From Escherichia coli (GTDB lineage Bacteria; Pseudomonadota; Gammaproteobacteria; Enterobacterales; Enterobacteriaceae): a stretch of DNA of 64,000 nt. Positions 51,487-64,000 of this stretch are shown here, one piece after another. How positions within the stretch are numbered: position 1 is the first letter of the stretch; each line of letters begins with the position of its first letter. The notes under the pieces are model-generated. The model saw nothing but the letters and a program-made list of their open reading frames with translations. It was not told the DNA's origin and did not search any database. The stretch lies in assembly GCF_009931435.1 (NCBI RefSeq), contig NZ_CP043414.1. One strand, 5' to 3'. Made by a program: the position numbers and the translations under genes.

Positions 51487-52392
51487 TCAGAACGCGTAAT
51501 TCACACCGACACCTGCATAATGGAATTTATCGCTGTCGCCTTCATCGTGATCCTGCCACTCAAACGCGTATTCCAGCGAAACGGAAAGACCATTCTGGAA
51601 ATCATAACCGTAAAACAAACCAAGACGGTTAAAATCATGGCCTTCACGTTCGATATCATCCTGCCAGTCCCAGTTACTCCAGCGATCCAACCCAATGCGC
51701 GTATACGGTGTTACCGAGTGATTGCCGAGCGTCAGCGGTAAATAGGCGCGAATTTCTTGCGTGGAGAATTCACCGTTATTGCGGCTGTCGTCCATATTGA
51801 AGCCGCGCTCGAGATAATAGTTCACTCGCAAGGCAACCGTTTCGTTGAAGGTATATTGCAGACCCGTTTCCGTTTCGACACGGGTATCAGCATAACCGGT
51901 TGTATTCAGATCGTTGGCAAATTTATACATCGACAGCCATCCGTTGAAACGTAAATCGTCAGTCAGTTTCACGTCCCAGTCTGGCGCGATTTTCCAGCGC
52001 TGCATATTTGCCGTGTCTTTACCCGGTTCATCAACGTAGTGATAACCATAGTTACGGAAACCACCGGTCAGGCCGAAACTGAAATCATCGCTTTCGAGAA
52101 ACTGATAATGCACTTCCAGTTCCGGGCGATCAAACCAGGTTCCACGTTTACCCGCGCTATAATCTACCGGCCCTTCCTGGTAATAAGCCAGCGATATTCT
52201 CCACGGCCCATTGGCAGCATTAAAATAGACGGAAGGCTCCGCCAGCCCGTCCATATCTTCGCCATAACCCTCGACGTTTTCTATTTCGTACATCGCGCCG
52301 ATATTAAAGTGCCAGTCGTTTTTTTCCTCAGCCTGTGCGCAGGCCATTCCCGCACACATCACCAGTGCGGTACAGGGTAATAACTTTTTCAT
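51487..52392 (-). CDS. ompG: Outer membrane porin OmpG (monomeric 14-strand beta-barrel)
   Basis: 301-aa ORF, signal peptide MKKLLPCTALVMCAGMACAQA, C-terminal ...VNYAF. Confidence 0.95.
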   Translation of the reverse strand: MKKLLPCTALVMCAGMACAQAEEKNDWHFNIGAMYEIENVEGYGEDMDGLAEPSVYFNAANGPWRISLAYYQEGPVDYSAGKRGTWFDRPELEVHYQFLESDDFSFGLTGGFRNYGYHYVDEPGKDTANMQRWKIAPDWDVKLTDDLRFNGWLSMYKFANDLNTTGYADTRVETETGLQYTFNETVALRVNYYLERGFNMDDSRNNGEFSTQEIRAYLPLTLGNHSVTPYTRIGLDRWSNWDWQDDIEREGHDFNRLGLFYGYDFQNGLSVSLEYAFEWQDHDEGDSDKFHYAGVGVNYAF

Positions 52393-52436
52393 TATTGTTC
52401 CTTGTATTATCCTGGGGGAATGCCTTCCCCCTGTAT

Positions 52437-53519
52437 TTAGCGAATTGCTATTTCCGTTTCTGCATCAAAGAAATGACATTTGGTCATATCGAAATGAATA
52501 GTGACGTTTTCTCCTGCATGATAATCATTTAACGCACCAGCACGGACCACTAACTCGTGCCCCCCAACCGTGGTGTAGAGCATAAATTCCGCACCGGTTA
52601 ATTCTGCCACGCTAATTTTGGCGGAAATGTTATTTTCCTCTTGCGCATCCGGATGAATATCTTCCGGGCGTATTCCCATCACGATGGGCTTATGCAAGCT
52701 TTCCTGCGTTTTCAGAACCGCTAATTTATCTTCGGGAATGGTTAATTTAAGCGTTTCCGTAACGAATTTATCGCCATCGATCGTGCCGCGAATAAAATTC
52801 ATTGCTGGTGACCCAATAAAGCCGGCAACAAACATATTCGCCGGTTGGTTATAGACCGTTTTCGGCGCACCGACCTGCTGAACAATCCCATCCTTCATAA
52901 TGACAATCCGCGTCGCCATGGTCATCGCTTCGGTCTGATCGTGGGTCACGTAGATCATGGTGGTGTTCAGTTTCTGATGCAGCTTGCTGATTTCCGCGCG
53001 CATTTGTACGCGCAGCTTGGCATCCAGGTTAGAGAGCGGTTCATCCATCAAAAACACGCCCGCTTCGCGCACAATCGCCCGTCCGAGCGCCACACGCTGG
53101 CGTTGCCCGCCGGAAAGCGCACCCGGCTTGCGTTTCAGGTACTCACGCAGGCCAAGGATTTGCGCCGCCCAGTTAACCCGCTCATCAATCACCTCTTTGG
53201 CGATTTTTTGCATCTTCAGGCCAAACGCCATGTTGTCGTAGACCGTCATATGCGGATACAGCGCGTAGTTCTGGAACACCATCGCGATATTGCGTGCTTT
53301 GGCCGGAACGTCATTCATTCGTTTACCGTCGATCAACAGATCGCCGCCGCTGATCTCCTCAAGCCCGGCAATCATACGCAGGGTGGTCGATTTACCGCAG
53401 CCCGACGGACCGACAAACACGATGAACTCTTTATCGGCAATCTCCAGGTTGAAGTCCTTCACCACATGCACCTGGTTATCGTAGATCTTTTGAATATGTT
53501 GTAACGAAAGCTGTGCCAT
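52437..53519 (-). CDS. ycjV: ABC transporter ATP-binding protein (MalK-like), intact
   Basis: 360-aa ORF. Walker A (GPSGCGKST), ABC signature (LSGGQRQR), Walker B (FLMDEPLSNLD), C-terminal MalK-type regulatory domain. No frameshift, unlike the K-12 pseudogene. Confidence 0.92.
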   Translation of the reverse strand: MAQLSLQHIQKIYDNQVHVVKDFNLEIADKEFIVFVGPSGCGKSTTLRMIAGLEEISGGDLLIDGKRMNDVPAKARNIAMVFQNYALYPHMTVYDNMAFGLKMQKIAKEVIDERVNWAAQILGLREYLKRKPGALSGGQRQRVALGRAIVREAGVFLMDEPLSNLDAKLRVQMRAEISKLHQKLNTTMIYVTHDQTEAMTMATRIVIMKDGIVQQVGAPKTVYNQPANMFVAGFIGSPAMNFIRGTIDGDKFVTETLKLTIPEDKLAVLKTQESLHKPIVMGIRPEDIHPDAQEENNISAKISVAELTGAEFMLYTTVGGHELVVRAGALNDYHAGENVTIHFDMTKCHFFDAETEIAIR

Positions 53520-62429: not shown

Positions 62430-62442
62430 GAGATGTTCCTTT

Positions 62443-64000
62443 TTATTTAATCCACATAACCTGCCAGGGGCGCAGCGTTATTTCATTACCCACTATATCA
62501 ACTTCACTAATCAGATCCCGACCGTGCAGGTCAGTAATATTTATATGCTGAATATTTTCACTGACATTAAACAATCCTGTCAGACAATTACCATCCGCGT
62601 TGCTTCTTTGAATACGCATTACGGATGAATTAACCGTATCGATGGTAAAACTATTATCCGGATGAAATTCTTTATGACGGCGACGAAGCGTAATTAAATG
62701 TGACAACTGATGATATACTGCGTGCCTGAGTGTCGTTTCATCATTCAGTTCACTGGCTATCTCTTCACTACGATATTTCTTACGGTTAATCGCGCGGTTA
62801 TATCCCAGCTTTTCGACACCAGCGTAATCATTACGTGAACCCAGAATACTTTGAATATAGACAGCAGGCACACCGGGAAAGGTTAACAATATGGCATGAG
62901 CAAGAATAAACCGGGCACAGCGTTCTTCGTCACTGCAATCGCGATGGCTCAATGCGTCCATGTAGGTCACATTCATTTCATACGGACTGCGCGTACCATC
63001 GGGATTATTTTTCCAGTTTACTAATGCCCCTTCCTGCTGTAATGCCTCGACCAGCGCTAATATTTCGCTTTCGGGTAGCAAGCCACGCAGTGGGTTAAGC
63101 CCGATGCCATCGTGAGAGGCGAGGAAGTTAAACCAGGTGGTGATGCTGGAAGGTAGTGTCAGGTTTTGCGCCCACGCACAAAGCGCCTCAACGTTCTGTT
63201 TTTGCACCGCATGCAGCACCAGCGGCGGCAGCGAGAACTGGTACACCATATGCGCTTCGTCATCACCGTTTCCAAAGTAAGCAATGTTGTCTTTGTGCGG
63301 AACATTGGTCTCGGTAATGATCACTGTACCTAGTGCTACGTCATCAATAATCGACCGTAACAGCTTGATAATCAGATGTGTTTTTTCCAGATGGATGCAG
63401 CTTGTTCCCGGCTCTTTCCACATAAAGCCAACGGCATCCAGGCGGACATACTCAGCACCTTTCTCAAGGTAACACAGTAAAATATCCACCATCGCCAGTA
63501 ACACTTCAGGGCTACGGTAATTCAGGTCAATTTGATCGTCGCTAAAGGTGGTCCATAAATGGCGCGTTGAATGATCGCGCATCTGGAATGGCGTTAATAA
63601 CGGTAACGCACGCGGGCGAGTGACGGCGCTGAGATCGGTTTGCGGGTCAACGGCAATAAAAAAATCTTCAAAACCTGGCTGCTGTTGTAAATAGTTTTTA
63701 AACCATTCACTTTTTGCCGACATATGGTTGCAGACAAAATCAAACATTAAATGACTGCATTCACCGAGTTGCTGAATATCCTGCCACTCCCCTGCTTCAC
63801 TGGCGACCTGATGATAATCAATTACCGAAAAGCCATCATCAGATGACCATGGATAAAACGGCAACAAATGAACATGTGAAAAAATGCTTTGCAGCCAGTG
63901 ATGGTAAAACTGATTAAATGTGGGTAGTGGTTTTAAATCATTACTGTGAAATTGATCGGCATAGGTAATTAACACGACATCACTTTCATCCCAGTGTTTT
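62443..64000 (-). CDS. ycjM: Glucosylglycerate/sucrose-phosphorylase-like GH13 enzyme; 5' end beyond window edge
   Basis: Minus-strand frame open from the window edge to the stop at 62443. GH13 sucrose-phosphorylase-like sequence. The track ORF begins at an internal Met. Confidence 0.88.
   Translation of the reverse strand, partial: KHWDESDVVLITYADQFHSNDLKPLPTFNQFYHHWLQSIFSHVHLLPFYPWSSDDGFSVIDYHQVASEAGEWQDIQQLGECSHLMFDFVCNHMSAKSEWFKNYLQQQPGFEDFFIAVDPQTDLSAVTRPRALPLLTPFQMRDHSTRHLWTTFSDDQIDLNYRSPEVLLAMVDILLCYLEKGAEYVRLDAVGFMWKEPGTSCIHLEKTHLIIKLLRSIIDDVALGTVIITETNVPHKDNIAYFGNGDDEAHMVYQFSLPPLVLHAVQKQNVEALCAWAQNLTLPSSITTWFNFLASHDGIGLNPLRGLLPESEILALVEALQQEGALVNWKNNPDGTRSPYEMNVTYMDALSHRDCSDEERCARFILAHAILLTFPGVPAVYIQSILGSRNDYAGVEKLGYNRAINRKKYRSEEIASELNDETTLRHAVYHQLSHLITLRRRHKEFHPDNSFTIDTVNSSVMRIQRSNADGNCLTGLFNVSENIQHINITDLHGRDLISEVDIVGNEITLRPWQVMWIK

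Follow-up and report, generated by a model that had tools for sequence, protein, structure and literature searches.

The 64,000-nucleotide (nt) stretch of Escherichia coli DNA analyzed here (NCBI RefSeq assembly GCF_009931435.1, contig NZ_CP043414.1), called the window throughout, very probably carries from position 50378 to position 64000 the ordinary chromosomal ycjMNOPQRSTUV-ompG operon of E. coli, together with ycjW, the gene of a LacI-type repressor. The identification brings nothing new in kind: the operon, the repressor, several of the enzymes and the binding protein are already published.

Gene content and organization of the locus

Eleven open reading frames (ORFs) lie co-directionally on the minus strand in the order ycjM-N-O-P-Q-R-S-T-U-V-ompG, which is the order of b1309-b1319 in E. 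coli K-12 MG1655. A gene-by-gene alignment of the window with MG1655 is collinear, its sole internal gap being a deletion in K-12 ycjV, and the 11 operon genes are 90.5–97.7% identical to K-12 in nucleotides and 94–100% in amino acids (aa). Three junctions overlap (54189–54192, 56453–56456 and 60235–60248), the other spacers measure 9–44 nt, and a plausible ribosome-binding site stands ahead of each operon gene. The genes are given below, with percentages for aa identity to the K-12 protein; the activities of YcjT, YcjM, YcjQ, YcjR and YcjS are predicted from 94–99% identity to RefSeq-named K-12 proteins.

62443–64000, minus: ycjM, predicted glucosylglycerate phosphorylase, GH13; 3′ 1558 nt only; 94.0% over 518 aa
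61137–62429, minus: ycjN, lipoprotein substrate-binding protein of an ATP-binding cassette (ABC) importer; SBP_bac_1; 98.4%
60235–61116, minus: ycjO, ABC permease, MalF/UgpA-like; BPD_transp_1; 100%
59406–60248, minus: ycjP, ABC permease, MalG/UgpE-like; BPD_transp_1; 98.6%; 14-nt overlap with ycjO
58323–59375, minus: ycjQ, predicted zinc-type dehydrogenase (K-12 annotation D-guloside 3-dehydrogenase); ADH_zinc_N; 99.1%
57518–58306, minus: ycjR, predicted xylose-isomerase-like TIM-barrel epimerase (annotated 3-dehydro-D-guloside 4-epimerase); AP_endonuc_2; 98.5%
56453–57508, minus: ycjS, predicted Gfo/Idh/MocA oxidoreductase (annotated D-glucoside 3-dehydrogenase); GFO_IDH_MocA; 99.1%; GTG start
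54189–56456, minus: ycjT, predicted GH65 kojibiose phosphorylase; three GH65 domains; 4-nt overlaps with ycjS and ycjU
53533–54192, minus: ycjU (pgmB), beta-phosphoglucomutase; 96.3%
52437–53519, minus: ycjV, intact 360-aa MalK/UgpC-type ABC ATPase; uninterrupted ORF
51487–52392, minus: ompG, monomeric outer-membrane porin, last operon gene; 98.3% to K-12 OmpG
50378–51376, plus: ycjW, LacI-family repressor of the operon; convergent with ompG

The original prediction, made from the sequence alone, had named these genes, and both the K-12 collinearity and the family searches agree with it. Its overlap coordinates were exact and it rightly put ycjW downstream on the opposite strand, convergent with minus-strand ompG; it gave no strand for the operon itself, and its count of ten genes has to be raised to the 11 that its own list also names.

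The window lacks the first 122 nt (41 codons) of ycjM, and the part present is free of stops and encodes the Pfam Alpha-amylase domain, the catalytic domain of GH13 alpha-amylase type. The alternative of a closed ORF of 510 aa starting at GTG was rejected, since there is no upstream stop and the frame runs past the window end. A complete 559-aa ycjM lies downstream of pspABCDE in contig VTMS01000008.1 (GCA_009899175.1), which is 100% identical to window 44189–64000 over 19,812 nt. The chromosomal site is covered on both sides, with ycjW, ycjX, ycjF and tyrR inside the window and pspABCDE in the identical contig. Immediately upstream of ycjM in Escherichia sits pspE, a rhodanese gene linked to YcjW-dependent hydrogen sulfide (H2S) production; pspE had no tblastn match in the Pseudocitrobacter vendiensis, Leclercia, Enterobacter and Pseudenterobacter loci, where pspD is followed directly by ycjM.

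Several other assignments are supported by family models or deposited names. YcjN has the N-terminus MIKSKIVLLSALVSCALISGC with an ISG/C lipobox, and its lipidation is published (PMC11543891). YcjU passes the beta-phosphoglucomutase equivalog TIGR01990 (267.5 bits versus a cutoff of 189.4), and the exact YcjT of the window is deposited at NCBI as 'kojibiose phosphorylase [Escherichia]' on 18 contigs. In VTMS01000008.1 the identical ompG carries PF09381 Porin_OmpG, its exact protein being named 'monomeric porin OmpG', and the identical ycjW combines the PF00356 LacI helix-turn-helix with a Peripla_BP_1/3/4 sugar domain; the exact YcjW is deposited on 473 contigs. Plus-strand ORFs within the operon (for example 52845–53504 and 58557–59309) were dismissed as mechanical ORFs antisense to conserved coding genes.

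The locus shares with the K-12 MG1655 ycj locus (b1309-b1320) the 11 genes, their order, the three overlaps and the convergent ycjW, and also the double repetitive extragenic palindromic (REP) element, the internal YcjW operator and the psp and ycjX neighbours. It differs in having a ycjV without the 1-nt deletion that K-12 carries at codon 319, in a nucleotide sequence that is 2–10% divergent, with a synonymous divergence (dS) of up to 0.43, and in that the window cuts off the first 122 nt of ycjM. Every testable feature places it with the known ycj operon. The ratio of nonsynonymous to synonymous divergence (dN/dS) from K-12 is 0–0.11 across the 11 operon genes, so that all 11 are under strong purifying selection relative to K-12, which argues that the ycj system is in use. 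About 8% of complete E. coli genomes (431–443 of 5426) gave no match to ycjV or ycjT probes, which means that a minority of strains lack the operon or have it disrupted.

A rare divergent allele block

The nucleotide divergence between the window and K-12 arises because the window carries a rare block of alleles.

About 50280–63025, no strand: rare divergent allele block of ~12.8 kb, ycjW through the 3′ two-thirds of ycjM

Window 25000–45000 is 95–99% identical to 5424 E. coli genome records, versus 90–95% for window 49000–64000 (5405 records). For a 2.6-kb ycjU-ycjT segment the distribution has two peaks: 18 of 4983 E. coli genomes match at 97.0–98.1% and all others at ≤91.1%, with none between. 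Identity to K-12 is 85–93% over most of the block and climbs sharply from 85–88% to 95–99% at ~63050, inside ycjM. Across the operon dS is 0.10–0.43, the highest value being that of ycjT, which is also the most divergent operon gene (90.5% nt and 94.0% aa identity to K-12).

Relatives of the block were found by a one-genome-per-species scan with exact-match peptide patterns, which gave only nine loci and is not a distribution census. Among the species scanned, the closest YcjT is that of P. vendiensis CPO20170097T (98%), an anomalous match in that genus because the YcjT proteins of Citrobacter and Salmonella are 71–77% identical and those of Enterobacter and Leclercia 63–65%. The block DNA of the window and of P. 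vendiensis (its locus 2461–15011) is 97.2% identical, while the P. vendiensis genes flanking the block on the same 231-kb contig are only 78–86% identical to the window. Within the block, pairwise identities among the window, E. coli RMDEC465 and P. vendiensis are 97.0–97.7%, and this group stands at 91–93% to K-12 and three other Escherichia species.

These observations, from the drop relative to the 20-kb neighbour to the mismatch between block and flanks in P. vendiensis, point to exchange by recombination, and we consider it probable that the block, from ycjW to mid-ycjM, was recombined in from an unsampled Escherichia-like lineage and that the same block entered P. vendiensis. The right-hand junctions in the window and in P. 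vendiensis lie within ~50 nt of each other, which would favour direct exchange. Some features fit less well. Within the block the window has the double REP typical of E. coli where P. vendiensis has one copy, so the tract is mosaic, and in E. coli its left boundary is ill-defined, the window being 91–97% identical to K-12 over 39000–50000. The comparison also rests on a single Pseudocitrobacter genome, in whose draft an assembly chimera is possible, although both junctions fall within one 231-kb contig. As to donor and direction of transfer, proteins were searched for a YcjT native to Pseudocitrobacter and none was named among the matches, and a literature search returned nothing linking P. 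vendiensis to ycj. Import of the block is compatible with the identification as the known operon and adds to it. The chances are about even for the fuller joint claim that the repressor gene and the eleven-gene operon (~12.8 kb) moved between genera as one allele by homologous replacement at the native site, and that a foreign ycj block, 6–9% diverged from all sampled Escherichia species, now resides in a rare E. coli lineage, represented by the window and 18 complete genomes, and in the P. vendiensis type strain. In 24A16CRGN010, one of the genomes with this rare allele, ycjT contains an IS200/IS605 transposase gene.

The same divergence could be of species level if the window came from another Escherichia species, as might be suspected from a ycj region only ~94% identical to K-12 and from the lack, in the genome collection, of any complete genome above 97.9% over the 15-kb region 49000–64000. 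This is very unlikely. Window 23871–38574 and window 63100–64000 are 97.5% and 97.3% identical to K-12, which are ordinary within-species values, the named Escherichia species compared are 88–95% identical in those flanks, and exact window proteins are deposited under E. coli; a non-coli origin was rejected on the flank identities.

The flanks differ from K-12 at other places as well. Between tpx and tyrR, which K-12 separates by 55 bp, the window has ~2.2 kb of additional DNA (43850–46090), occupied by a 684-aa ORF (43997–46051, plus strand; GC content 0.45–0.49) for which Pfam, NCBIfam and PADLOC gave no match at E ≤ 0.01. At ~41440–41470 the K-12 genes ymjC (part), ymjD, ycjY and pgrR (~2.4 kb) have no counterpart in the window, and at ~38571 the K-12 IS5F copy beside ynaI is absent.

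The intact ycjV allele

K-12 ycjV (b1318) and ymjB (b4524) are annotated as pseudogenes. The K-12 lesion is the loss of one G from a run of six.

52560–52565, minus: G6 homopolymer at ycjV codon 319, site of the 1-nt deletion (G5) in K-12

The frameshift removes the last 41 YcjV residues, about half of the TOBE domain. The original prediction held that ycjV is full length here with all ABC motifs and would have fallen with a missed frameshift; the frame is uninterrupted over 360 aa and every nucleotide-binding motif is present (Walker A 37–44, Q-loop Q83, LSGGQ 135–139, Walker B 155–160, D-loop 163–166 and H-loop 192–194). The domains ABC_tran, OB_MalK and TOBE_2 reach residue 351, and the protein scores 484.5 bits against the NCBIfam UgpC subfamily model NF008653 (cutoff 432). 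Full-length E. coli YcjV (WP_000057985.1) shows ATPase activity in vitro, and E. coli YcjV was unable to replace Bacillus subtilis MsmX (PMC7658222).

We searched 75–76 nt around the G run in 5426 complete E. coli genomes. The intact G6 76-mer is exact in 4378 of them and the K-12 G5 75-mer in 369. All six G5 carriers listed or sampled are laboratory strains: ER1709 and JM109, listed at 100% to the G5 form, AML003_par and TUM24565, sampled from one-position mismatches to the G6 form, and MG1655 and BW25113. The exact YcjV of the window occurs on 973 public contigs as 'ABC transporter ATP-binding protein'. Full-length ycjV is also present in Escherichia sp. E1V33, E. whittamii, Escherichia sp. 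MOD1-EC7003, P. vendiensis, Enterobacter genomosp. O, Pseudenterobacter timonensis and Leclercia sp. 29361, and the genomes aligned showed no other inactivating ycjV lesion. Of seven genomes from other Escherichia species and other genera with this part of the cluster, six combine a full-length ycjV with the same psp...tyrR synteny. The exception is Leclercia adecarboxylata NCTC13032, where the YcjV match spans only 70% of the protein. There ycjQ, ycjR, ycjS and ycjV are each matched over only 49–74% of their length in one piece, which suggests frameshifts or long-read assembly errors.

The intact ycjV is the ancestral and prevalent wild-type state, its ancestry following from its occurrence in other Escherichia species and four other genera, and the K-12 lineage is an outlier with its own frameshift. 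The contrast with K-12 that had been drawn is therefore correct as to the 1-nt deletion and misleading as to its implied significance, the intact allele being the species norm. An unusual strain-specific restoration or gain, which would make the locus functionally unlike that of typical E. coli, has the pseudogene annotation of MG1655 and the one extra G of the window in its favour and is extremely improbable given the allele counts, the other species and genera and the identical YcjV in public contigs.

Regulatory and structural elements

In K-12, YcjW represses the ycj operon (Luhachack et al., PMC6599011), occupies in vivo chromatin immunoprecipitation (ChIP) sites before ycjM and between ycjT and ycjU, and is freed from DNA by kojibiose in vitro; deletion of ycjW derepresses ycjM, ycjT, ycjU and ompG (PMC6599011). 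We derived an operator as a near-palindromic 14-mer with a central CG common to both K-12 ChIP regions, and exactly one such 14-mer, TGGGACCGCTACCA, was found.

54209–54222, minus: internal predicted YcjW operator TGGGACCGCTACCA, within the ycjT 3′ end and stopping 16 nt short of the ycjU ATG

The 14-mer has one match in the window, with no mismatch, and this site is conserved across Escherichia species. A second exact copy is present in VTMS01000008.1 (locus position 2309), ending 12 nt before the ycjM ATG, where a TTGACA-17-TAGTCT promoter lies upstream of the gene. Promoter and terminator scans gave no more sites than shuffled sequence (15 versus 13.4 and 17 versus 16.6), and we claim no internal promoter. 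Upstream of the ycjX start, at ~50246, the window and E. coli RMDEC465 lack the 10 bp CTGCTCTGAA that K-12, P. vendiensis and three other Escherichia species have; the site is the ycjX-ycjW divergent promoter region.

The spacers on both sides of ompG hold inverted repeats.

51398–51435 (plus) and 51444–51473 (minus): inverted REP pair in the 110-nt ompG-ycjW spacer
52414–52431, minus: 7-bp hairpin GGGGGAA-GGCA-UUCCCCC in the 44-nt ycjV-ompG spacer; −13.6 kcal/mol, z = −2.4

REP elements, which we take to be imperfect palindromes of ~35 nt with a GCCGGATGCG...CCGGCCTAC core, occurring extragenically in inverted pairs, had been predicted to separate ompG from ycjW, and two inverted copies do so at 51398–51473. 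In arms, core, inversion and extragenic position the pair fits the REP/BIME (bacterial interspersed mosaic element) pattern. The arms are complementary, the double REP is conserved in K-12, and the REP-core 13-mer has five matches in the window against 0.29 expected. There are two copies in E. coli and one in the other Escherichia species and P. vendiensis. The spacer gives a sub-threshold match to Rfam naRNA4 (39.4 bits versus a gathering score of 59.5); an Rfam scan of 49500–64000 (E ≤ 1) found no known RNA element in the operon, its snoRNA match being spurious.

The hairpin between ycjV and ompG is conserved, with E. whittamii keeping the stem and differing in the loop. The terminator scan had matched it on the wrong strand, and on the transcript strand there is no U-tract after it, so we do not count it as a canonical terminator; the hairpin may act in mRNA stability or processing.

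Relation to other sugar systems

Like MalEFGK2-LamB, the system has an outer-membrane channel, a binding protein, two MalF/MalG-type permeases and a MalK-type ATPase with an OB/TOBE domain, and couples transport to phosphorylase and regulator control. The scores of YcjV with the MalK model (430 bits) and of YcjP with MalG (145 bits) stay below the equivalog cutoffs, which makes the two proteins paralogues rather than members of MalK and MalG; the ycj system as a whole is likewise paralogous to the maltose system and does not belong to it. The systems differ in that YcjN is a lipoprotein and in that ycj is under a LacI-type repressor, whereas mal is under the activator MalT. OmpG is a monomeric 14-strand porin, unlike the LamB trimer. 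With the UgpBAEC importer the likeness is that YcjV passes the UgpC subfamily model and that YcjO and YcjP match UgpA and UgpE; however, NF008653 is a subfamily model and not an equivalog, YcjN, YcjO and YcjP are far below the UgpB, UgpA and UgpE cutoffs, and the genomic context of ycj is carbohydrate catabolism.

The catabolic core, a GH65 phosphorylase paired with a beta-phosphoglucomutase, is shared with the kojibiose clusters of Thermoanaerobacter brockii and Pyrococcus sp. ST04, whose kojibiose enzymes have been cited as homologues (PMC6599011). In the window the corresponding ycjT and ycjU are adjacent and translationally coupled through their 4-nt overlap. What the enterobacterial system has beyond these, compared by description, is a GH13 glucosylglycerate phosphorylase, the keto-glucoside/guloside module YcjQRS, a porin and a LacI repressor.

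Proposed working of the system

The following mechanism draws on the published K-12 work and on sequence features of the window. YcjW, bound to the 14-bp operators upstream of ycjM and at the end of ycjT, would silence the operon until displaced by a kojibiose-like sugar. OmpG would then admit oligosaccharides across the outer membrane, and the lipoprotein YcjN, the permeases YcjO and YcjP and the ATPase YcjV would import a glucoside. YcjT and YcjM would split alpha-1,2-glucosides to glucose or glycerate plus glucose 1-phosphate, and YcjU would convert beta-glucose 1-phosphate to glucose 6-phosphate, which enters glycolysis. YcjQ, YcjR and YcjS may interconvert glucosides and gulosides via 3-keto intermediates.

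For the operon of the window, the enzyme activities, repression and co-transcription through ompG are carried over from the K-12 literature. The intact ORFs and the dN/dS of 0–0.11 make functional uptake a reasonable inference, and both a working transporter and its cargo are put forward on that footing, our confidence in the transported substrate being much lower than that in the identification of the operon. Several points weigh against this picture. K-12 fails to grow when kojibiose is the only carbon source, and deletion of ycjW does not help (PMC6599011); YcjN gave a negative result in a thermal-shift ligand screen with kojibiose among the compounds (PMC11543891). YcjT and YcjM are each 6% different in residues from their characterised K-12 counterparts, whose specificity they are assumed to share. 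The operon had been described as complete, yet its start lies outside the window, with the 5′ end of ycjM, the promoter and the upstream YcjW operator all beyond base 64000. Functional claims for this strain are, finally, projections from its sequence and from work on K-12.

Discussion

For the ycj transporter K-12 serves poorly as a reference, since its ycjV frameshift is peculiar to the K-12 lineage. Since natural E. coli and related genera carry an intact ATPase, the failure of K-12 to grow on kojibiose need not hold for the species. The allele block shared with P. vendiensis would be a neat example of whole-operon replacement across a genus boundary, of modest interest to population genomics. 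If such movement between genera did occur, the divergent YcjT and YcjM (94% to K-12) might carry a shifted substrate preference.

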